IMG/VR virus record: IMGVR_UViG_3300021295_000001 | Reading direction: 5' to 3' (one strand) | Origin: a virus | Lineage: Duplodnaviria > Caudoviricetes | DNA length: 64,000 nucleotides | Shown here: positions 13,799 to 57,506 of the stretch, piece by piece | Layout: each line of letters starts with the position of its first letter | How positions within the stretch are numbered: position 1 is the stretch's first letter | Program-made: the position numbers and the translations under genes | Notes under the pieces: model-generated | What the model was told of the DNA's origin: nothing | The model's input: only the letters and a program-made list of their open reading frames with translations | Database searches by the model: none

Positions 13799-15046
13799 AT
13801 GAAATACAACATCCCCGTGTCCAAAATCGAGAAACTCGAGAAACTCATCGCCAAGTACAACAAAAAGGGCGCTGGAATTTCCTATGAGCGCGGTGAGGAG
13901 GTCATCGAGGACGGGACCCTCGTCTACCGTGGCGTCGACGGCATGGGCAGGCCCTTCGAGAGCCGTTCCCCCATCAAGGTCCGTTGCGTGGAGGTCGTCG
14001 TGGACGGCTCCTACGTCATCAACGGTTGGGAGTTCGTCGGCGTCTTGGAATACACTGGCTCCTCCGTCGTCGTCAGGTTGGCGGACACCAAGTTCTCTGG
14101 GAAACTCCCCGAGCGCTTCCGCGACCCCAATGACATGGTCTGCGAGCACTGCCACACCATCCGCAACAGGAAGGACCTCTACGTCATCCACAACGTCGAG
14201 ACCGACGAATACAGGAAGGTCGGCAGGCAGTGCCTCCTCGAATACACCCGCGGGATGGACGCCGACGTCTGCGCCAGCGTCATGGAGGCCCTCGGCAAGT
14301 TGGTCGAGGTGTCCGACCCCTGCGTCGGATGGGACGAGTTCATGGGCAACGGATACGACCGCTCTGGCTACGGAATGCCCCGTCGCGAGTTCACCGAAAT
14401 CGCCTACGCGATGGTCAAGAGGTTCGGGTACGTCCGCAAGGACACCGTCAACGACATCCTATCCTACGTCTACAAAAACGGCATGACCAAGGCCGAGTGG
14501 GACAAGAGGTTCGGCTCGCTCGAGATGCCCAGCGAGGCGGAGATGGCCGAAATCGACGCCTACGTCGCCGAGGAGGCCAAGAAGGACGAGGCCCTCAGGG
14601 CCAACGGCTTCGGCTCTGGCCTCACCGAATACATGAGGAACGTCGTGGCCCTTTGGTCCGCGGAATACCTCGAGACCAGGGACTTCGCCATCGTGGCGTC
14701 CTTCTGCAACGTCTTCCTCGGCAAGGTCGCCAAGGCCAAGGCGCACGCCGAGAAGGCCTCCAGCGAATGGGTCGGCAAGGTCGGCGACAAGGTCGAGTTC
14801 CCCGTCAGGTCCGCCAGGGTCCTCTACACCAAGGACTCCTATTCCTACTACGGACCCTGCTCCTACGTGTGGGAACTCATCGACCCCAACGGCAACGTGG
14901 CCATCTGGTCCACCACCCGTTCCGACCTCGACTCCGAGGGCCTCGGCAAATACAAACTCATCGGCACCGTGAAGGGCCAGAGCGAGTACAAGGGCGTCAA
15001 GCAGACCGTCCTCACGAGGTGCAAAGTGGAGGCGGTCGCTTGCTAA
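13799..15046 (+). CDS. conserved phage protein with zinc-ribbon-like CxxC and C-terminal OB-fold-like domain
   Basis: CEHC...VGRQC; VGKVGDK...GTVK..EYKGVKQTVLTR; strong codon bias. Confidence 0.7.
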   Translation: MKYNIPVSKIEKLEKLIAKYNKKGAGISYERGEEVIEDGTLVYRGVDGMGRPFESRSPIKVRCVEVVVDGSYVINGWEFVGVLEYTGSSVVVRLADTKFSGKLPERFRDPNDMVCEHCHTIRNRKDLYVIHNVETDEYRKVGRQCLLEYTRGMDADVCASVMEALGKLVEVSDPCVGWDEFMGNGYDRSGYGMPRREFTEIAYAMVKRFGYVRKDTVNDILSYVYKNGMTKAEWDKRFGSLEMPSEAEMAEIDAYVAEEAKKDEALRANGFGSGLTEYMRNVVALWSAEYLETRDFAIVASFCNVFLGKVAKAKAHAEKASSEWVGKVGDKVEFPVRSARVLYTKDSYSYYGPCSYVWELIDPNGNVAIWSTTRSDLDSEGLGKYKLIGTVKGQSEYKGVKQTVLTRCKVEAVAC

Positions 15047-15049
15047 ATT
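15041..15049 (+). promoter_or_regulatory. putative late promoter TGCTAAATT
   Basis: recurrent motif at the start of the late block. Confidence 0.7.
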
Positions 15050-15099
15050 ACACGATTCTAGTTATGCCTTATTCGCTTGAAAGGTAGGAGGAGAACATA

Positions 15100-18000
15100 A
15101 TGAAGATTAAAATCGTGAAACCCACGGGCGAGGTAGAGAGCCACGACGCTGGGATAGAGGCTTCTTTCGAGCCGTTCGAGAACGAGAGGGAAAGCAACGA
15201 GCCCGAGGCCGTCGAGAAGCAAATCGAGGCCACCGAGAAGGAAATCGAGAGGCGCCTCGAGAAGGCCAAGGAGAACTCCGAGGCCACCAAGGGCGAGGAC
15301 CACGTCGGCGATGAAGGAAAATCATTAGAAGAAAGTTTTAATAGCGGTGCAACTGTGTATGAAGTGGCAAAAGACGGTCTGCCTGAAGTCGGTAGAGAAT
15401 TTATAGCCTATTTATCAGGTCACAGGGACTACGAAATATGCAAAAGATTAGAAAAATCTAAGATGGAAACACGACCAGGTGCTGAAGGCTATATTAGTCC
15501 AGACGGTGAATTCTATAATAGCGCACATGGTTGGATTTACCCTATAACCTATGATAGTTACGTTTACATTGATGAGATAGGCCTTAAGTCGGGCAACGTC
15601 TCTAATGCGGAGACAACCGAATTTGAAGCCATGAAGCAAAAATCACTAGACACATTCATCGAGGTATTTGGCGATGAGTTGGGCAAGAGGTTGCATAACG
15701 CATTCTCAACAAAGAGGTCTAATGGTAAATTTACAGTTAGGTTACCATTCGATAGCGGGTTTAATGGTTACGACGAAAAAGCAGACATCAATTATTACAG
15801 TGTTTGTGGCAACTCTGGTAAAGAATATGATAAATTCGTTAACCAACTCGTAAATAACGGTTTCTCAAGAAATGAGGCTTTGAAGGTATTAGACATAATT
15901 TCTAAATATGAGTGGCGGAGCGAGTTTGCAAACGATGCCTTCAGAGAAAAGAGAAGTGATATCGAGAAATACATCAAAGGCACAAACGAATCTCCCGAAG
16001 AAAATAACGAAGATGTCACGGACTCAAAAGTAGCGGACGATAAAACCAAGACTGTCGGCGAGGAAATCACCGAGTCCTTCAAGAACAGGAAGGACCTTTC
16101 CTCTCGCATACAGTCGCTCAAGGCCGAGGGCATCGCCTTCAAGGTCAACAGGAGCGCCACCGAGGGCATGAGGTACGACCTCACCTACGCGAAGCCTATC
16201 GTCGAAGGGGAAGGCGACGCCATCGAGGTCACCGACGAGGTGAACGTCGAGGAACCCATCGAACCCGTCGAGGCCAAGCACGTCGGCGCCGATGAAATCG
16301 AATCCGCCGTCAGGGAAATCGCGTCCAAATACAACGGCGAGGGCTCCGAGGCCCAAATCGGCGTGGACGAATTCTCCAAGGAAGGCGAGGGCGACAAGCA
16401 CATCAAACTCACGGTCCTGGGCGGGCTTAACGGCTTCGGCGAATGGGACAGGTACCTCACCGCCCTCGGTTCGTTCCTTTCCGAAATCAAGGAAGAGACG
16501 GGATGGAACCCCCGCGTCGAGGAGTTGGCGAGCGACATCGCCGACGACACCTTCTCCGTCACCCTGCATCTCTACGACGAGGAACTGGATGGCTCAATCG
16601 AGGAGTCCATCGGCAAACTCAAGGAGTGGTACGAGGGCAGGAAGGCAGAGGCCGAGATTGGGGAAAGCGTCGAAGAAGGCGCGGAAGGCAAGCGCGTCGA
16701 AGGCAAGGAATACGTCATATTCGACGCATCCGAAGAAGGCAAAGCGCCGATTCTCGACATCCGTAGCACACGCGTCGAGGCGGAGAGCAGAGCCAACGAA
16801 CTCAAAAAGACTGGCGAATACGACAGCGTGTCGTTCGACGAAGCACCCAAGGGACGCTTCCACAAGGGAGACGATTTCTGGGGACCGTTCGAAGGAGACG
16901 ATTGGCATCTCGCGGAAGAGAAGCGGGAACTCAAAGAAGGCGAAAAGCACGAAGAAGGCAATGACAATCTGTTCGGTTACGTGAACGGCGACCTCGCCGA
17001 CTTCAAGGCCGAGGAACTCATCGACAAGGTCAAGGAGAGGAAGCAGTCGCTTCACACGGTCAGGTACATCAAGGACACCGACGACGTGAAGACGGTCGCA
17101 TACATCTTCTGCTCACCGATGGGCTTCGGCGAGGAACCCGCGGTGTTCGTGGACGTCGTCGAAGACACATGGACACGCAACCCTGGCGACGCAGACGACA
17201 TCAACAGTTACTATGGCACCAACAAGCAGGAACGCATAAAACTCGATTGCGCGGGTTCATGCGGTGAAGGCGAAGAGGGCTTCGCGAAAGCCATCGAGGT
17301 GCTCAACAAATACAGAGACGAAAGACTTAAAAAGAAAGAAGACATTGAGGAGAAAACCGAAATGAAGGAAGAGAAGAAAGAAATCGAGGAAATCGCTGAT
17401 TTCCACTTCGAGTGGAGGGACGACGAGGACGAGCATCTTGTGGTCGTCGCGACCTTCCCTGATGGCCACGAGGAGGACGTCGGTTCATATGAATCAGAAA
17501 CCGAGAAGCCCGAGTTCCTCAAGGCTCAGGAAAACGGCGACGAACTAGCGTTCGAGAACTATGACTACGAAGACTGGTACGACGATGCACTCGACAAACT
17601 CCACAGCATTGGGCTTTACCTCACTGGCGAATTGGAATCGAAGCACGTCACCAAGTGGAAAAAACCCGTGAAGGAAGAGAAGAAAATCGAAGAGGCTTGG
17701 AAGAAGGTCGTGAGCAACCACGGCCTCCGCGACGCCATCGACGCCGAGGACTACGACGGCATCAGGAAGGCGGCCATCGCCATCCTCAAGGACGTCGAGG
17801 AATTCCTTGGCGACAACACTGAGACCATGGACCTAATCGACCAGTTCGAGAGCATCGAGGAGGACGAGGAGGATTTCGACTACGCGTTGGACGAACTCTA
17901 CGACCTCTGCGACAACGTCGGCGTGTTCATCAGACTCGACGCGGAAGAGGCGCTCAAGGAAGGCGAAGGCAAAGAATGCCACGAAGGCGAGTGCAAAGGA

Positions 18001-18945
18001 AAGGAATGCGCCGAATCCAAGTGCGACGAATCCAAGTGCAACGAGGGATGGTTCCGCGGTTGCGAGGGCGTCGAGTTCATCTGGCATGGCACCCAATCCG
18101 ACCCCGAACTCGAATACAAGGGCCAGAGGTTCAACTATTGGGAAATCGAGGACGCCCTTTGGGACATGTTCAAGGACGACGGTGGCGACACCAAGGACGA
18201 AGAGGCCTTCAACAAGTTCGTCCAGGAATACTGCAAAGGCTATCTCGACGACGTCATCGCCAGCCAAGAGGAATCCCTGAAGGAAGGCGAGTGCCCCGAC
18301 GAGAAGGCCATCGAGGTCGCCAAGTACAATTACGGCTTGGACGACGACGAGGCCAAGGAATTCGTCTCCACCCTGTCTGACGAGGGCAAGTGCGAACTCA
18401 TCAAGGGCTGGGAGGCCGAGGCCAAGAAGTCCTTCCACGAGGAAGCCGAAGGCGAGTTCCCCATCCTCAGGGGCACCATGGACTTCATGGAACTCAAGGC
18501 GAAACTCTCCGACGATGAACTCAAGTACATGGAAAGCGAACTGAAGGACTACCTCACGAGCGACCCCGAGGACTACGATGAGCGCCATGGCGTTGAGGCA
18601 AAAGGCTACCCCGACGTCGTCGTTTGGTACGAAGGCGGTTACGACACCGATGACATAATCGAACTCGTCCACGAAGCGTACGCCCCGAGCGAAAGGAACG
18701 TCGAGGAGGACCTCAAGATAATCGGCGACATCTCCGACTACGAGCCGTGGTCTGGCGCCGTCGACCTCTGGAACGAGATTCAGGACAAGGGCCTCGTCGA
18801 CCAACTCGACATGCTCTTGGACGAGGTGTACCCCGAGGGAATCACCATGACCCAACTCAACGACATCCTCTGGTTCGAGCAGGACTGGGTCCGCGAGATG
18901 CTCGGCATCGAAGAGGAACCCGAAGGGGAAGAAGAGGAGGAATAA
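15100..18945 (+). CDS. very acidic modular 1281-aa protein, probable internal head (ejected) polyprotein
   Basis: AGGAGG RBS; E/D-rich; domains separated by L/I/V-x-E linkers. Confidence 0.7.
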   Translation: MKIKIVKPTGEVESHDAGIEASFEPFENERESNEPEAVEKQIEATEKEIERRLEKAKENSEATKGEDHVGDEGKSLEESFNSGATVYEVAKDGLPEVGREFIAYLSGHRDYEICKRLEKSKMETRPGAEGYISPDGEFYNSAHGWIYPITYDSYVYIDEIGLKSGNVSNAETTEFEAMKQKSLDTFIEVFGDELGKRLHNAFSTKRSNGKFTVRLPFDSGFNGYDEKADINYYSVCGNSGKEYDKFVNQLVNNGFSRNEALKVLDIISKYEWRSEFANDAFREKRSDIEKYIKGTNESPEENNEDVTDSKVADDKTKTVGEEITESFKNRKDLSSRIQSLKAEGIAFKVNRSATEGMRYDLTYAKPIVEGEGDAIEVTDEVNVEEPIEPVEAKHVGADEIESAVREIASKYNGEGSEAQIGVDEFSKEGEGDKHIKLTVLGGLNGFGEWDRYLTALGSFLSEIKEETGWNPRVEELASDIADDTFSVTLHLYDEELDGSIEESIGKLKEWYEGRKAEAEIGESVEEGAEGKRVEGKEYVIFDASEEGKAPILDIRSTRVEAESRANELKKTGEYDSVSFDEAPKGRFHKGDDFWGPFEGDDWHLAEEKRELKEGEKHEEGNDNLFGYVNGDLADFKAEELIDKVKERKQSLHTVRYIKDTDDVKTVAYIFCSPMGFGEEPAVFVDVVEDTWTRNPGDADDINSYYGTNKQERIKLDCAGSCGEGEEGFAKAIEVLNKYRDERLKKKEDIEEKTEMKEEKKEIEEIADFHFEWRDDEDEHLVVVATFPDGHEEDVGSYESETEKPEFLKAQENGDELAFENYDYEDWYDDALDKLHSIGLYLTGELESKHVTKWKKPVKEEKKIEEAWKKVVSNHGLRDAIDAEDYDGIRKAAIAILKDVEEFLGDNTETMDLIDQFESIEEDEEDFDYALDELYDLCDNVGVFIRLDAEEALKEGEGKECHEGECKGKECAESKCDESKCNEGWFRGCEGVEFIWHGTQSDPELEYKGQRFNYWEIEDALWDMFKDDGGDTKDEEAFNKFVQEYCKGYLDDVIASQEESLKEGECPDEKAIEVAKYNYGLDDDEAKEFVSTLSDEGKCELIKGWEAEAKKSFHEEAEGEFPILRGTMDFMELKAKLSDDELKYMESELKDYLTSDPEDYDERHGVEAKGYPDVVVWYEGGYDTDDIIELVHEAYAPSERNVEEDLKIIGDISDYEPWSGAVDLWNEIQDKGLVDQLDMLLDEVYPEGITMTQLNDILWFEQDWVREMLGIEEEPEGEEEEE

Positions 18946-52120: not shown

Positions 52121-53071
52121 TTGTTGGGTCTAGGGTGTTTCGTTGACAACGAATACCTAGACCTTTATTGTTCTTTGATAAACGATAACAGAGCCACAAA
52201 AAGGGAAAAGTTCAAAACGCAAAGCCACCACATAATACCGAAATGCTGTTTTTCTTGCCTAAAGTTGCCGATAGACGATTCATCAGAAAACAAAGTCAAT
52301 CTCCTGTATTCAAAACATATCCTTGCTCACTATTATTTGTGTTTGTGTTCAGATAGCACCAATAAACAATTAAAATACAAGTTGGAGAATTCATTTCTTC
52401 ATCTTGTATCAGGCGATGCCAACAACAAAAAACGCATTGAAAATTATGAGGTGGATGAATTTGAACAATTTCAAGAAATATATGAGGAGTGGAAAAGTCT
52501 AAATAGTTCACTTAAATTGGGGAAATCTTCTTGGAACAAAGGTCTTACAAAATCGACAGATGCTCGTGTTGCAAAATACTCTAAACCTCGTAACTTTTCT
52601 AAAGAGCATAATAAAAATCTAAGTAAAGCAATAAAAGAATACTTCAAAACTCATGTAGCGCCAGCAAAAGGGAGAAAGTTATCGGACGAAGCAAAACGCA
52701 AACTATCTGAAGCGCACAAAGGTAAATATTATATGCCAAAGGACCCAGAGGCGCATTCAAAGAAAATGTCAGAAAATTCAAAGAGATACTGGGAAACTCA
52801 TCCCGAAAGAATTAAAGCCCTCATAGAATACAACAAATCTCGTGTTATATCAGAAGAAACACGACGCAAAATTGCCTTGGGCCAAAAGAGACAAGAAGTT
52901 GTAATGATAGACGATGACGGGAATGTGATACATAATTTTATATCCATCAAAGATGCTGCTAGATATTTCAACATAACGAATTGTGCCGTTTCTTGGAGAA
53001 TAAAGAAAAGAAAGGAAATTGAGCCAGGAAGATACTTAGCATTCAAACAGGATACAGATGTCAGAAAATAA
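52121..53071 (+). mobile_element. free-standing HNH homing endonuclease with NUMOD3/NUMOD1-like repeats (start uncertain)
   Basis: HHIIPKC...N.V.L....H..AH; WNKGLT, KGRKLSDEAKRKLSEAHKG, SEETRRKI, F.SIKDAARYF; AT-rich. Confidence 0.85.
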
Positions 53072-53377: not shown

Positions 53378-53549
53378 TTCGACGGGGCCGAAAGACCCCG
53401 TTTTCGTTTCGCTGTATAATATGATTGCGGCTTAAAGCGCACGGTTTCTATTCGTTTTCAAAATTCGAAAAACGCATCGTGCGTGCGCACATACACGCGA
53501 TGTATTCGTCGTTTGCTAAATTCAGAAGAAACGGTTGGAAGGTTTTTCG

Positions 53550-56500
53550 ATGTCCGAAAGCGCAAAGTACTATGATTCTAATGGCAGGCGCCTGACGGAT
53601 GGGCAGGCCAAGTTTTTCTGGGATTCTGCCGTGAGGGACGGCCAAGGAAGGCTGTTGGTGTGCTATCATGGTTCCAACGAATCGTTTTCTGAGTTTGACC
53701 CGTCAAAAGCGTCAGGCGGTTTCTTCGGAAAGGGATTCTATTTCTCGAAAGAAGAGGAATATGCATCTGATTACGGAACATCGGTAGGCGCGTATTACCT
53801 GAACATAGAGAACCCATTCTATTATGATGAGTCGACCATGGAAGACGTCAGGAAAATCCTTGATTTGGAAATCAAAAAGGGAAAAATCGACGGTTACGAC
53901 GAAGAGGAGATGCCACGATTAGAACAAGAATGGTATGACAAAGGGTTGGACCTCATAGACGACGTCTTGGCGGAATTGGCTGGTGGTTACACGGGTGACA
54001 CGTTTTCGGAAGACATCATGCAACTTGGATATGATGGGATACTCGTCGACTACGGAAGGGAGATAATCGTGTTCAGCCCGAACCAGATTAAGCGCGTGGA
54101 CAACACAAACCCGACCGATTCCGATAGATTGGATGAGAAAACAACGCAAAACGTAATCTTTTTCGGCAATCCGACCAAGCGCAATGACATGCGCGCCACC
54201 GAATCATTTGACGAGGCTTACGAGCCGATGAAGACGGGCAAGGCATACAAGGTCTTCCGCGTGAAGAACGGGAAACTATATCCTCCCATGGTGGCCAACG
54301 CTGGCGGAAGGGACACGCCGATTGGGGTGTGGCTCGACGCAGAGGAAGGCGAGTTCGCTGGCCTTTCCAAGACTGGCAGACCCCAAGTCAAGTCGACTGG
54401 CTCTGGCACGCTCTCATACAGGCCTGGGTGGCACCTCGGCGATTTGCCACGCGCCCCTCAGTTCGACAGGACCAACAAGGAGACTGGCGAGAAGGAATTC
54501 CCGAGCGATTTCGTTTGGGCCGAGTGCGACTACGCCATGGACGTCGACTATCAGCCAGAGGCGGACGCCCGTGGGTACGAGAGGACCAAGATGGGCGACG
54601 ACGGCAAGGTCGTGACCTACAAGAGCGACAAATACCAACATTCCCTCGCGGGACTTCCGAAACTCCCAGCCAAGGGTTATTACAGATACAGGACCAACCC
54701 GAACCCCGAAACCGTGCCATGGGTCATAACTGGCTCGATAAGGGTGAACAGGTTGCTTTCCGACGACGAGGTGAACGCCATCCTGAAGGACAACGGAGTG
54801 GCCCCGATACACAGGCAGGGCGGTGACAAGACGCTCGCCGAACTCGGCCTTTCCGAATCCCTGTCCGAGGCATCTGGCTCGGGTCTTGACGAACAGGCGT
54901 CGCGACGCACGCTGACATCGAATGATTTCCTCGGTTGGGTCGAGGCGCTGTCCGACAAAGACGACATATCATATAACTCCCCCGATTCCATCGAATACTC
55001 GGACGTGTTGTTGCTGAGCCCCGAAGGGGACATGATTGACTGCGGGGAATACGACACCCACGAGTCTTTCGTGGACGCCGTGATGGAGACGAATGAGGCC
55101 AAGGAGGCCAAGGCGCGCGTCGTTTGGGACGGGAGAATAACCGATTACCTTTTGGAGAAACTCGGCTACATCACGCTTAACAGTGGCCAAGGATACGGCG
55201 ACGACAGGTTGAAGATAGTCATATGCAGAAAGCCGAGCGCTCAGCAAATCGACATCCTCAAGGAGTGGCTTGGAAACCATTTCGCGGACAACGGTCCCAC
55301 GTTGCATGTTTATACGCCAAACGACCATAAGGAATTCGACCCAACGTATTTCGACAAGGAAGACGTGACGAAAGGCATAATCAAGGCGTTTTCTTCTGGT
55401 AGAGGGGTGTTCACCGAGGCCACTGGCTCGCACCTGAAGGGCGAGTACGACTACGGCGACGTGCATTCGTACCTCGAATCCGAATTCGGGTTTTCGGACG
55501 ACATCCCCGAGGTCATGCCACAACTCATAGACAAAGACGGGCGCTTCTGCTCCATGAGCCCAAAATCCAAGCCGAACGCGCCCATGTTCCATGGGGAGAT
55601 ACTCCAAGCCATGGAGGACGACGGAATCGTGGCCACTGGCGATTCCCTTTTGGACAAGGTGAACCTAACCAACACCGACCTGTTCCAACGGCTCGGGTTC
55701 ATACGTTGCAACCGCGGGAGCGAGGGATACCACTACATGGCGTTGCCAGACGCCCCCACCGCGAACCAGATGAGGGCCCTCAAGAGGTACGTGCTCGATT
55801 CCTATTCCGACAGGCGCGCCCTGATTGAGATAAGCGGTCGTGGCGAATACGTGAACTTCATGGTCAACGACGACACCTATCCGATATGCGGGCACGTGGA
55901 CGACCTCATGAGGATGTTGGTCAGATACGCCAACGGCAGGCCCCTGAGGACGAAAACGGAGGCCAGGTTGTCCGAGGAATGGCTCGACGACGAGCACGGA
56001 ATCTGGATGACCGAGAGCCAATACGAGGTCGCCAACATGATGAGGAACTCCAAACACTCCCTCAGGATACTCTGGGACAGGAACCTCAAACTGTTCTTCG
56101 TGTGCGACGCGGACCTCTACATACACAGGGACATGATTGAGCAGGCCGTGGAGGACGGGCTGTACAACGGCGTCATAAGCCGTTGGGGTATAGACTCGTA
56201 CGTCGACGACTACGGCAGGAACGTGATATACTACATCTTCGCGCCGAAGGGCCTCGAGAAGGAGACCTACGGGGCGGACGTGAACGAGGACGGCTACGAG
56301 GGTAAATACATATACCCATTCGGGACCGTGACCACGCGTAGCGACGACAGGTACAAGTCCTCACCGCTCGCCAAGGCGCTCGGGAAGTACGAGGCCCATT
56401 ACGTGCAGGACGGGTGGGTCGACGATTACACGCCGAAGGTCGTACAGGTAGAGTCGATGCTCACCGAGGTGTATCCGAACGAGGGCGAATCGAAGAAGGA

Positions 56501-57506
56501 CTTCGTGTCCCGCTTCATGTCCGTTACCAAGGACGAATACCCAGACGTAAAACAGCGATACGCCGTGGCTCTTTCCTATTGGGACAGGGCCAAACGCAAA
56601 AACGAGTCGTTGCTCACCGAGAAGAAGCGCGGTGAACTCATAAGCCAGTCCAAGAAGGGCGCGGACTATTCGAAGAACAACCAATCCAAAGGCAGGAACA
56701 GGTGGGAGCGCAGGATGCATTCCCGCGTGGCGAACAGCGTCAGGGACTACGACAGGATAGACATGAACGCGCTTTGGAAGGCCGACATACTGGAGTTCGG
56801 CGTGAAGGTGCACGGCGAGACCGACGACTACGTGGTCACGATAACGTTCGAGAAGATACTCGACAACCTGAGGCAGGAGGTCCGCTCCAACGGCAACAAG
56901 ATGGAGTTCAAATGCGTGCTCAGGGCGCTAATGAGGTCGTTCAACGACGACGACGTCTTCATCAGTTGCTCCTGTCCCGACTGGAAATACAGGTTTTCCT
57001 ACCAAAGCACGATTGGGCGCTACAACAGCGGTCTGCCAGAACTCAGGCCGAGCGACATCACCAACCCCAACAACGACAAGGGCGCTGGGTGCAAGCACTC
57101 GTTGCTCGTCCTGTCCAACACGGACTGGATGGTCAAGATAGCGTCCGTCATAAACAACTACGCGAGGTACTGCCAGAAGAACATGCAGAAGAACTACGCG
57201 GACTACATATTCCCGAAGATTTACGGGATGCCCTACAAGAAGGCCGTGCAACTGTCCCTGTTCGACGACATGGACCCCGATAAGAGCGGTCTGTTGCCGA
57301 GCGACCAGAAGGCCCTGTCCGACGTCATAGAACTCGGCATGAGGGGCAAGGACGAGAAGGGGCGCTTCGAGAAGGGCAACGACTACAGGTTCGCGAAGAC
57401 CAAGCCCGAGGTTGGGACCGACCAAGAGGACGAGAACCCGCTCGAACTCAGATTCGACAACAACAGGCGCAAGACGCTCAGGGGACCAGAGGAGGAAGAA
57501 GGATGA
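53550..57506 (+). CDS. large polyvalent protein: ART-like domain, several cargo domains and C-terminal SWIM zinc finger
   Basis: YHGS..F..FD...GKGFYFS...YLNIENP..GYDGI....EIIVFSPNQIK; CSCPDW...CKH; TGCTAAATT at 53514. Confidence 0.8.
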   Translation: MSESAKYYDSNGRRLTDGQAKFFWDSAVRDGQGRLLVCYHGSNESFSEFDPSKASGGFFGKGFYFSKEEEYASDYGTSVGAYYLNIENPFYYDESTMEDVRKILDLEIKKGKIDGYDEEEMPRLEQEWYDKGLDLIDDVLAELAGGYTGDTFSEDIMQLGYDGILVDYGREIIVFSPNQIKRVDNTNPTDSDRLDEKTTQNVIFFGNPTKRNDMRATESFDEAYEPMKTGKAYKVFRVKNGKLYPPMVANAGGRDTPIGVWLDAEEGEFAGLSKTGRPQVKSTGSGTLSYRPGWHLGDLPRAPQFDRTNKETGEKEFPSDFVWAECDYAMDVDYQPEADARGYERTKMGDDGKVVTYKSDKYQHSLAGLPKLPAKGYYRYRTNPNPETVPWVITGSIRVNRLLSDDEVNAILKDNGVAPIHRQGGDKTLAELGLSESLSEASGSGLDEQASRRTLTSNDFLGWVEALSDKDDISYNSPDSIEYSDVLLLSPEGDMIDCGEYDTHESFVDAVMETNEAKEAKARVVWDGRITDYLLEKLGYITLNSGQGYGDDRLKIVICRKPSAQQIDILKEWLGNHFADNGPTLHVYTPNDHKEFDPTYFDKEDVTKGIIKAFSSGRGVFTEATGSHLKGEYDYGDVHSYLESEFGFSDDIPEVMPQLIDKDGRFCSMSPKSKPNAPMFHGEILQAMEDDGIVATGDSLLDKVNLTNTDLFQRLGFIRCNRGSEGYHYMALPDAPTANQMRALKRYVLDSYSDRRALIEISGRGEYVNFMVNDDTYPICGHVDDLMRMLVRYANGRPLRTKTEARLSEEWLDDEHGIWMTESQYEVANMMRNSKHSLRILWDRNLKLFFVCDADLYIHRDMIEQAVEDGLYNGVISRWGIDSYVDDYGRNVIYYIFAPKGLEKETYGADVNEDGYEGKYIYPFGTVTTRSDDRYKSSPLAKALGKYEAHYVQDGWVDDYTPKVVQVESMLTEVYPNEGESKKDFVSRFMSVTKDEYPDVKQRYAVALSYWDRAKRKNESLLTEKKRGELISQSKKGADYSKNNQSKGRNRWERRMHSRVANSVRDYDRIDMNALWKADILEFGVKVHGETDDYVVTITFEKILDNLRQEVRSNGNKMEFKCVLRALMRSFNDDDVFISCSCPDWKYRFSYQSTIGRYNSGLPELRPSDITNPNNDKGAGCKHSLLVLSNTDWMVKIASVINNYARYCQKNMQKNYADYIFPKIYGMPYKKAVQLSLFDDMDPDKSGLLPSDQKALSDVIELGMRGKDEKGRFEKGNDYRFAKTKPEVGTDQEDENPLELRFDNNRRKTLRGPEEEEG

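Follow-up and report, generated by a model that had tools for sequence, protein, structure and literature searches.

The gene that fills positions 53550 to 57506 (+ strand) of the window, by which we mean the whole 64-kb stretch of viral DNA analyzed here, encodes a single protein of 1318 amino acids composed of seven modules. We give a probability of about 0.5 to the reading in which a carrier domain forms the base of a polyvalent protein that is delivered by the virion and cut by the head protease; its packaging, cleavage, ejection, and targets are what we infer. Comparison with homologs shows a modular build, joints that fall at natural protein termini, a lineage-specific enrichment of one joint motif, and conservation of both the carrier and its synteny. 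As a Leu-x-Glu signature is found at each joint, the protein is probably packed, cut, and injected. The original prediction, which described a string of cargo domains that is packaged, cleaved into separate effectors, and injected, is partly supported. The source phage is uncultured and has a genome of ~150 kb. The features of the region are as follows, with a slash marking the position after the Glu of each joint motif.

53381..53402, + strand: terminator-like hairpin closing the upstream unit, found by pattern scan (7 pairs, 5 of them G-C, then a T-rich tail).
53413..53420, + strand: TGTATAAT, which resembles an extended -10 element and is possibly a promoter, located after the hairpin.
53550..57506, + strand: polyvalent-protein gene, 1318 aa, stop codon included; the product is identical to database protein P0002.
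53574..54137, + strand: module 1, residues 9-196 (homology limits), a predicted ART-PolyVal ADP-ribosyltransferase (PF18760).
54129..54224, + strand: joint 1, residues 194-225, LDE/K ... ATE/S, FDE/A.
54225..54851, + strand: module 2 (D2), residues 226-434, phrog_30118, widespread and highly conserved (AF2 pLDDT 91.6).
54852..54899, + strand: joint 2, residues 435-450, SE/S LSE/A SGSG LDE/Q.
54900..55409, + strand: module 3 (D3), residues 451-620 (homology limits 449-454 to 617-631).
55410..55430, + strand: joint 3, residues 621-627, FTE/ATGS.
55431..55955, + strand: module 4 (D4), residues 628-802, a weak D3 paralog by pairwise BLASTP, with an approximate N-terminal limit.
55956..55979, + strand: joint 4, residues 803-810, TE/A R LSE/E.
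55980..56453, + strand: module 5 (D5), residues 811-968, 68% identical to a stand-alone homolog of 188 aa (P0368).
56454..56468, + strand: joint 5, residues 969-973, SM LTE/V.
56469..56600, + strand: module 6, the mini-module VYPNEGESKKDF..YWDR, residues 974-1017 (44 aa).
56601..56621, + strand: joint 6, residues 1018-1024, NE/S LLTE/K, equivalent to the leader end of stand-alone carriers.
56622..57503, + strand: module 7, the carrier domain, residues 1025-1318, with 390 stand-alone homologs (AF2 pLDDT 81.7).
56967..57098, + strand: SWIM-type CxC...CxH site (C1140, C1142, C1181, H1183), invariant columns in 58 homologs.

The open frame extends from 53535 to 57506, and the ATG at 53550, with GGAAGG 8 nt 5' of it, is the likely start. 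The gene had been described as late-promoter-driven. This is not confirmed, as only the hairpin and the extended -10-like element were found upstream; an 11-mer of that element has four copies in the window, where 0.34 would be expected. The same-strand genes 3' of the polyvalent gene resemble the fibre-like late region of a collinear relative (G001).

An open reading frame of ~1320 residues with about seven discrete modules had been proposed from the letters alone, and this architecture is borne out by homology. Polyvalent proteins carry 2-15 disparate domains; here there are seven, each of which occurs alone or recombined elsewhere. The ART-like domain is confirmed by a match of residues 30-189 to PF18760, which reaches 85.5 bits (cut-off 31.2; E 7.6e-24) and spans profile positions 1-139 of 140. 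Its sequence includes YHGS (H40), GFYFS (Y63), and REIIVF (E171), which, from known PARP motifs and inspection of the sequence, we take to be a PARP-like H-Y-E catalytic triad. H40 and the terminal E196 are conserved in ~91% of 23 ART modules.

Module 2, previously noted as a KAYKVF...RPGWH domain, is likewise a discrete unit. Its relatives fall into 1378 representative clusters; it is ~80% identical across dozens of differently built proteins and is also present, at 60-70% identity, in giant polyvalent proteins of 2.5-6.5 kaa. It seems probable, on structural modeling, that D2 adopts a divergent ART-like fold, a point that the original prediction missed. Nearly all of its top 50 chains in VIA-align belong to the ART superfamily (Arr, RES, PARP, diphtheria-like, DarT, MbcT, ParT, and pertussis), but the best Z is only 4.5; its Atlas neighbors Arr, PARP, and Tox-ART score 0.80. 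Foldseek returned no ART match for D2, nor did D2 match any family in a Pfam search. More distant homologs of D2 bear MuF_C, Zeta-toxin, and ART domains.

D3 is the N-terminal module of three other proteins (P0004-P0006). The mutual similarity proposed for D3 and D4 is real though weak: they share 23% identity over 97 aa (pairwise BLASTP E 6e-5), and one segment of P0003 aligns to both alike, while self-BLAST at 1e-3 did not detect the likeness. D5 is delimited by the 984-aa protein of G001, which stops at ...DDYTPKIIEVA exactly where the module ends, as does P0368. The small module, given earlier as 45 aa, is substantiated by stand-alone proteins of 56-63 aa, which end at YWDRRxKK, and by its presence, at 75-85% identity, in dozens of other architectures.

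As predicted, modules have been gained, lost, and reordered at the joints among orthologs. P0003 shares the modules of the query but has them rearranged, and the G001 ortholog (P0006) consists of D3, D2, and the carrier only, with ART, D3-like, and D5 modules distributed over two other large head-block proteins of that genome.

The C-terminal ~295 residues had been read as a further module ending in a SWIM finger. On the evidence of its homologs, this SWIM-containing region is the conserved, ortholog-defining carrier rather than additional cargo. It exists as a stand-alone gene of ~300 aa in hundreds of relatives and has a strongly basic N-terminal part, a predicted zinc site of the SWIM type, and a tail that is acidic. 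The finger itself is upheld by the invariance of its three cysteines and one histidine, but the Pfam SWIM profile (PF04434) remains sub-threshold on the query (15.2 and 18.1 bits, where 19.6 is needed). In many orthologs, the site is an intein insertion point (query positions 1142-1149). The carrier is homologous to gp65 of Listeria phage LIS04 (hhalign probability 99.4%), and its matches in BFVD are only uncharacterised "SWIM-type domain-containing" proteins of jumbo phages.

(L/I/F)-x-E motifs, between one and three of them, flank each module in unstructured joints, and every joint corresponds to a natural N- or C-terminus in stand-alone or differently built homologs. Proteins that begin with D2 retain a short leader ending xxE, and more than 20 homologs with D2 as the last module stop exactly at LAELGL. 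In G001, D3 ends ...GGSFLE/AYEP immediately ahead of D2, and the alignment of the stand-alone D5 homolog begins at residue 807; joints 3 and 4 are delimited by few homologs. All of the xE motifs listed in the original prediction were found in place, and their proposed clustering at junctions holds statistically. In the query, 10 of the 25 [ILVFM]xE motifs fall within the junction zones, which cover 10.6% of its length (binomial P 1.3e-4; P 0.0024 by shuffling within zones). Across 420 non-redundant homology breakpoints from 120 relatives, the motif is enriched 1.88x (z 12) and the tandem form ES[LIMFV]xE 6x (z 25).

The same pattern is seen in the carrier, which always lies behind a variable leader ending (L/I)-x-E. 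Among 83 distinct leaders, P3 is L in 81 and I in two, and P1' is A or K. Additional LxE motifs are present in 45 of 55 long leaders, compared with 26 +/- 3 in shuffles. E1024, in joint 6, is invariant in 58 homologs, and in the carrier model the joint 6 motif lies in an unstructured, low-confidence tail ahead of the first helix. The N-terminus of the query is minimal by comparison (MSE/S), which counts against the preferred reading; the MKFxLVE leader of other sublineages is absent from it.

A gp21-like protease, for which a search had been proposed, was found in the clade, though not in the 64-kb window. G001 encodes a gp21-type protease (PF03420 E 2.6e-7; phrog_207 E 1.8e-35), and homologs occur at 21 further loci; for the phage of the window, a protease is predicted from these relatives. 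Capsid proteins of relatives have two conserved N-terminal sites, M..LLE/TY.KRL.ISE/S, and the capsid N-terminus of G001 has LTEA twice. The (L/I)-x-E at the ends of leaders and modules matches these capsid sites.

Acidic Ser/Leu/Glu linkers could, however, be favored for reasons other than proteolysis. The best-surviving alternative, which we regard as unlikely, is that the polyvalent protein is delivered and active as one uncut chain in which L-x-E is a style of flexible acidic linker or a helix N-cap. The density of LxE over the whole protein is an ordinary 1.9 per 100 aa, and the known polyvalent proteins N4 vRNAP, ArdC, and TraC1 are transferred uncut (PMC5512222), both of which favor it. 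Enrichment at family breakpoints extends to the reversed pattern E-x-[ILVFM] (1.6x), but this is explained by the tandem ES-L-x-E. An uncut chain fits poorly with an enrichment that is specific to Glu over Asp and to the i, i+2 spacing: [ILVFM]xD occurs at the junction zones of the query in only one of 39 cases, and neither xD nor other spacings are enriched at family breakpoints. It is similarly hard to reconcile with L or I at P3 in all 83 carrier leaders despite the segment being unstructured in the model. The two-site pattern of the capsid N-terminus and the coincidence of motifs with the termini of stand-alone modules point the same way. Finally, the motif is present on each side of D2 in 92% of its close phage homologs, whereas giant polyvalent proteins (at least 2400 aa), which are not of this phage type, have another junction signature in its place, K/Q-Y/F-S-I/L-R. 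The L-x-E motif does not belong to the D2 fold itself.

Gene position bears on whether the carrier enters the head. At 79 of 80 related IMG/VR loci it lies within the virion gene block, next to terminase-portal-protease-capsid genes or sheath-like and tube-like genes, and in cultured homologs it is found between neck and sheath genes, close to a "T4 prohead protease" gene. Three placements count against packaging. SP-15-like phages have the carrier gene in the neck region, and neck proteins are added only once the protease has done its work; in G001, as in the window, the polyvalent gene is among tail-fibre-like genes, ~15 kb from the head genes; and in Maribacter phages a SWIM-only match sits amid replication genes. 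It is improbable, but not negligibly so, that the protein is unpackaged, with the SWIM domain taking part in morphogenesis or DNA handling inside the infected cell, perhaps as a small-terminase-like or an assembly factor, and the N-terminal enzymes acting late in the producing cell. The Maribacter match, the strongly basic part of the carrier, and the general link of SWIM fingers to nucleic-acid or protein binding agree with such a role. So do ~38 loci at which the carrier gene is directly upstream of the large terminase gene, the usual position of a small terminase. The position of the carrier nevertheless varies, being upstream of the terminase, downstream of the tube gene, in the capsid-neck interval, or among fibre genes, and therefore fits a small terminase poorly; the carrier also has no match among solved structures, small terminases included. 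The conserved, cleavable-looking leader and the N-terminal ART and effector-type fusions are better suited to a delivered protein, and ART-PolyVal serves as a hub domain in proteins that are believed to enter the host on invasion (PMC5512222). Processing by a different enzyme or at a different stage, whether by a host protease after injection or by an unrecognised peptidase among the modules, is very improbable: D3, D4, and D5 lack an assigned function and Iyer et al. proposed autoprocessing by an embedded peptidase (MPTase) for polyvalent proteins, but a peptidase family search over all parts of the protein gave no match, and the motif has the specificity of T4 gp21 and co-occurs in the clade with gp21-type proteases and capsid N-terminal sites.

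In the preferred reading of a packaged and cleaved protein, the leader of the carrier would have been expanded by six cargo modules, namely ART-PolyVal, D2, the D3/D4 pair, D5, and the 44-residue mini-module. The carrier would bring the whole chain into the prohead, where the T4 gp21-type prohead protease of the clade would cleave each joint motif C-terminal to its Glu, in the same way as the capsid N-terminus. The released modules would remain in the head, leave with the DNA on ejection, and may then modify host or defense targets. More tentatively, and at somewhat less than even odds, this would be a cassette system for capsid cargo in a large clade of uncultured phages of ~130-200 kb with T4-type heads. 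If so, any module with (L/I)-x-E joints could be inserted before the SWIM-type virion protein or other head-block carriers, excised by the head protease, injected as a separate effector, and exchanged between carriers and phages; D2, the commonest cassette, would represent an uncatalogued family of ART-like enzymes, one shared with giant polyvalent proteins of other mobile elements, whose different joint signature would presumably go with a different releasing peptidase.

Several known systems share parts of this design. Fusions of MuF (SPP1 gp7 / Mu F) with effectors also join a conserved virion-associated domain to variable effectors, but in the present protein the effectors precede the carrier on its N-terminal side, with L-x-E joints separating them; the query has no Pfam match to Phage_Mu_F or MuF_C, and its carrier is unrelated to MuF. 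The inner-body and ejection proteins of phiKZ, 201phi2-1, and SPN3US are head-internal proteins with long propeptides, cut after Glu at multiple, redundant sites by a gp21-related protease (PMC5694885, PMC9026906). Their motif is A/S/G-x-E rather than L-x-E, what is cut away is propeptide that is believed to leave the head rather than independent enzyme modules, and no sequence relation between them and the query was found.

In T4, the ADP-ribosyltransferase Alt and the varied anti-host proteins IPI-III are packed into the head, as would be the case here. They are targeted by leaders that the gp21-type protease removes by cutting after the Glu of (L/I)-x-E, and Alt is cleaved at both ends (PMC9026906, PMC3012670). 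The T4 cargo is encoded by separate genes, each with an N-terminal leader of 7-19 residues, whereas here six cargoes precede the carrier in one chain. The ART of the query, with its presumed PARP-like H-Y-E triad, was not a homolog of Alt by any test run.

A close parallel is with the polyvalent proteins of Iyer, Burroughs, Anand, de Souza, and Aravind (2017, PMC5512222), which likewise combine many disparate effector-type domains in one polypeptide, share the ART hub domain (PF18760 was defined on them), are encoded by phages among late or virion genes, and differ widely in architecture between orthologs. The present protein differs in having no MuF, portal, or MPTase domain, its constant part being the C-terminal SWIM-type carrier. 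The text of PMC5512222 does not mention linkers or prohead-protease sites; release is proposed here to be by the head protease in trans, at L-x-E, and not by an embedded peptidase. Including its presumed delivery from the head, an even call, the protein would be a variant of polyvalent, head-delivered proteins.

The protein encoded at window positions 53550-57506 (+), hereafter the query, can be divided into modules by homology. Module limits were determined by BLASTP of the query against 120 homologs, which were drawn from a search of 5.8 billion proteins. They resolve, as originally predicted, a string of seven discrete modules in a single 1318-aa protein; the stretches between them are termed joints.

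Features of the polyvalent gene and its product (upstream elements by sequence scan; module limits by BLASTP homology)
Window 53381-53402: terminator-like hairpin, upstream of the polyvalent gene
Window 53413-53420: TGTATAAT element, upstream of the polyvalent gene
Window 53535-57506, + strand: open frame of the polyvalent gene
Residues 9-196: ART module
Residues 226-434 (window 54225-54851): D2
Residues 451-620: D3
Residues ~628-802: D4
Residues 811-968: D5
Residues 974-1017: mini-module
Residues 1025-1318: C-terminal SWIM-type domain (carrier)

A convincing start is the ATG at 53550, which has GGAAGG 8 nt before it and gives 1318 residues. The resulting sequence is identical to database protein P0002, which occurs on six contigs, the longest of 150.6 kb. 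The gene forms a separate transcription unit, given the hairpin and the TGTATAAT element upstream; these elements do not show the late promoter that had been proposed. Immediately upstream lies a homing endonuclease gene (NUMOD1/NUMOD3; phrog_655; window 52121-53071). Elsewhere, the 1281-aa ORF at window 15100-18945 is very acidic (net charge -181); at 3.5 per 100 aa its L-x-E density is the highest among the large ORFs, and it contains three tandems of the form E(S/T)-L-x-E.

Pfam identifies ART-PolyVal (PF18760) at residues 30-189 (85.5 bits against a cut-off of 31.2), where YHGS, GFYFS and REIIVF presumably represent the intact H-Y-E triad of PARP motifs. The profile phrog_30118 covers residues 231-424. 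Searches of D2 to D5 as single modules against Pfam, of NCBIfam, and of PDB sequences with the whole query gave no match; the protein atlas held no usable neighbour for D5, and GenBank phages gave distant, partial matches only. Direct pairwise comparison shows D3 and D4 to be weakly paralogous (E 6e-5, with 23% identity across 97 aa), so the mutual similarity claimed for them is present though weak; self-BLAST of the query at 1e-3 did not detect this repeat.

The distribution of modules among homologs indicates that they are mobile. P0003 carries the same set as the query in a different order, P0004-P0006 contain D3-D2-carrier only, and in the collinear relative G001 (IMGVR_UViG_3300028886_000052; 148,987 bp) the ART module, a D3-like module and D5 are placed in two other large head-block proteins of 2122 and 984 aa. 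Ortholog architecture is therefore not fixed, in agreement with the module gain and loss that had been predicted. In addition, the joints coincide with natural termini of stand-alone or otherwise built homologs. More than 20 D2-terminal proteins end exactly at LAELGL (query residues 429-434), while D2-first proteins keep only a short leader, e.g. MIRRVNE↓K (arrows mark proposed cuts after Glu). The end of D5 corresponds to the protein end (...DDYTPK(I/V)..) of the G001 984-aa protein and of the stand-alone D5 protein P0368. Likewise, the 45-aa module proposed earlier is a separate unit, known from stand-alone proteins of 56-63 aa with C-terminus YWDRRxKK. Stand-alone carriers start just ahead of LLxE↓K, which forms joint 6 in the query.

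The motif [ILVFM]-x-E is enriched at these joints relative to domain interiors, as anticipated. Ten of the 25 occurrences in the query fall inside junction zones set by homology, which account for 10.6% of its length (binomial P 1.3e-4; within-zone shuffling P 0.0024), compared with only one of 39 for [ILVFM]-x-D. For the family, breakpoints were defined as internal ends of pairwise alignments among the 120 homologs and reduced to 420 non-redundant zones. This de-duplicated test replaced a first motif-density metaplot, which was dominated by D2 flanks, including the internal LAE of LAELGL. Against zone shuffles, enrichment over interiors is 1.88-fold for [ILVFM]-x-E (z 12), 2.1-fold for [LI]-x-E (z 13.7) and 6-fold for ES[LIMFV]xE (z 25). 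Across the 420 zones, x-D, adjacent spacing and i+3 spacing are not enriched (z 2.3, -3.0 and -0.7, respectively); a weaker enrichment of E-x-[ILVFM] arises because tandem ES-L-x-E yields it. The overall motif density of the query is ordinary (1.9 per 100 aa), and the signal is where the motifs sit, not how many there are.

The D2 family shows that the joint signature varies with the type of element while the domain stays constant, as its flanks differ between phage and giant proteins. It comprises 1378 clusters at 50% identity and reaches giant polyvalent proteins of 2.5-6.5 kaa at 60-70% identity. Of the phage proteins with 70% identity or more, 92% carry [LIVMF]-x-E on both sides of D2, no more than 14 residues away. 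In giant proteins (>=2400 aa; D2 homologs P0272-P0367), the upstream flank is SD.(D/E)(V/T)(K/Q)(F/Y)S(I/L)R(E/K).P, not L-x-E, and the downstream flank is ..KYS(L/I)..; a different releasing peptidase may act at this signature. A signal for processing or handling would be expected to depend on lineage in this way; a structural cap would not. In AF2 models of D2 (pLDDT 91.6) and the carrier, the L-x-E motifs at the D2 ends and within carrier residues 1-9 lie outside the folded core at low pLDDT. The explanation that the polyvalent protein stays uncut, with the joints a mere linker style, is possible but doubtful. As for the fold of D2, VIA-align returned almost exclusively ART-superfamily chains (Z <=4.5) and the protein atlas gave a weak pointer in the same direction, whereas Foldseek against the PDB gave no match at E <= 1e-3. 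Based on the model, D2 is probably a second, divergent ART-like domain.

By homology, the C-terminal carrier is the ortholog-defining part of the query. Its 390 homologs (165-527 aa) are mostly stand-alone proteins of ~300 aa, some with ART alone in front. In 83 distinct leaders (median 17 aa), the position two before an invariant Glu is Leu in 81 and Ile in two, and P1' is Ala or Lys. A further [LIVMF]-x-E occurs in 45 of the 55 leaders of at least 14 aa, compared with 26 +/- 3 in shuffles. Since the carrier is C-terminal in all extended forms except P0089, expansion takes place within the leader. A different leader, M(K/R)(F/I/V)x L(V/I)E, precedes unrelated first modules (ART, D5-like, mini-module and others) in 38 of 442 collected relatives, including P0022, P0090 and P0372-P0416, and recalls the T4 capsid targeting sequence. 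Neither the window nor G001 contains it, and it was therefore rejected as the targeting signal here.

The assignment of the carrier as a SWIM finger holds in part: its BFVD matches are exclusively uncharacterised SWIM-domain proteins of jumbo phages, but the Pfam SWIM match at the query C-terminus is below threshold. Foldseek found no solved relative in the PDB at E <= 1e-3. Many orthologs contain an intein (PF14890, sometimes with HNH_3) between x and the second Cys of the SWIM CxC (window 56967-56975), for example ISCT/CLHPNT...VVLHN/CPDWKY in the G001 ortholog P0006, and the window copy is intein-free. Inteins usually occupy conserved, important sites.

The carrier gene is consistently associated with virion genes. 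An IMG/VR scan with a single carrier protein gave no match; loci were found with P0006 and a carrier alignment (A1) as queries. The gene is within the virion block at 79 of 80 loci: immediately upstream of terminase-portal-protease-capsid (~38), immediately downstream of homologs of the G001 sheath-like and tube-like genes (~40), or, at a few, between capsid and neck-region genes. The place before the terminase suggested a small terminase, which was rejected on variable position, lack of a fold match and the leader/fusion pattern. In the cultured SP-15-like phages LIS04 (Listeria) and HSE3 (Bacillus), the homolog lies between neck protein and sheath; the capsid gene and 'peptidase U9, T4 prohead protease' precede it by a few genes. 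The carrier and its LIS04 homolog align with hhalign probability 99.4% (E 1e-21), placing MILFE↓MNRSKLIS against LLTE↓KKRGELIS.

A gp21-like protease was found in the collinear relative G001; the 64-kb window has no protease gene. G001 has the order terminase, portal (phrog_213), protease with coiled-coil protein, and capsid gene with insert. Its 533-aa protease (11993-13594 of L006, the first 20,000 nt; phrog_207 E 1.8e-35; PF03420 Peptidase_S77 E 2.6e-7) is a gp21-like domain fused to a long coiled-coil, scaffold-like C-terminal part, with phrog_207 over residues 13-451 and a weak SMC-like match. The major capsid gene (L006 13640-16391) is split by an insert with an HNH/homing-endonuclease ORF (14268-15302); exon 1 starts MQLKAKQLTE↓AYARRLSLTE↓AAYK and ends ..RPMASRTGF, and exon 2 matches phrog_138. 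Capsid N-termini of 13 further relatives read M..LLE↓TY.KRL.(I/V)(S/A)E↓S, and LIS04 has LLE↓K and VNE↓A. On the basis of this protease and these N-termini, the clade has both the enzyme and a canonical substrate with the motif of the joints. In T4 itself, gp21 cleaves after Glu to take off leaders of 7-65 residues; it also cuts Alt at either end and core proteins at many sites (PMC9026906). Multi-site processing of ejection proteins is carried out by gp21 relatives in giant phages (PMC5694885).

We propose, with a probability of about one half, that the carrier would bring the whole chain into the prohead, the head protease would cut it at the joints, and the freed pieces would be ejected together with the DNA. 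The neck-side carrier position in SP-15-like phages fits awkwardly with prohead entry before maturation, and no usable virion proteomics of cultured phages with a homolog turned up in the literature. A late protein that is not packaged, its SWIM domain serving assembly or DNA handling, is an improbable alternative. Processing by another peptidase is very improbable.

Should the joints prove to be genuine protease sites, the proposed route would be a natural polyprotein way to load several independent enzymes into a phage head from one gene, with release by a head-maturation protease acting in trans. It would provide a simple sequence rule by which proteins injected against the host or its defences could be found in uncultured phages of gut and rumen, and would point to a natural design by which foreign proteins could be packaged in phage capsids. 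Whatever the mechanism, the SWIM-type carrier (a virion-block protein of hundreds of phages that often hosts an intein) and D2 (1378 clusters without a Pfam family, probable ART-like fold) are large uncharacterised families.

The query falls within the polyvalent proteins of Iyer et al. 2017 (PMC5512222) but lacks MuF, portal and MPTase (peptidase) domains; that study proposed release by embedded peptidases and did not discuss linkers or prohead-protease sites. The proposed mode of action is like that of T4 Alt and internal proteins, except that many cargoes stand in one chain before a C-terminal carrier. If true, it would be a third solution, next to the single leader and single cargo of T4 and the embedded peptidase of the polyvalent-protein concept. 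Added here are the identity, distribution and synteny of the carrier, quantitative and lineage-specific tests of the joints, the stand-alone forms of the modules, and the probable ART-like nature of D2.
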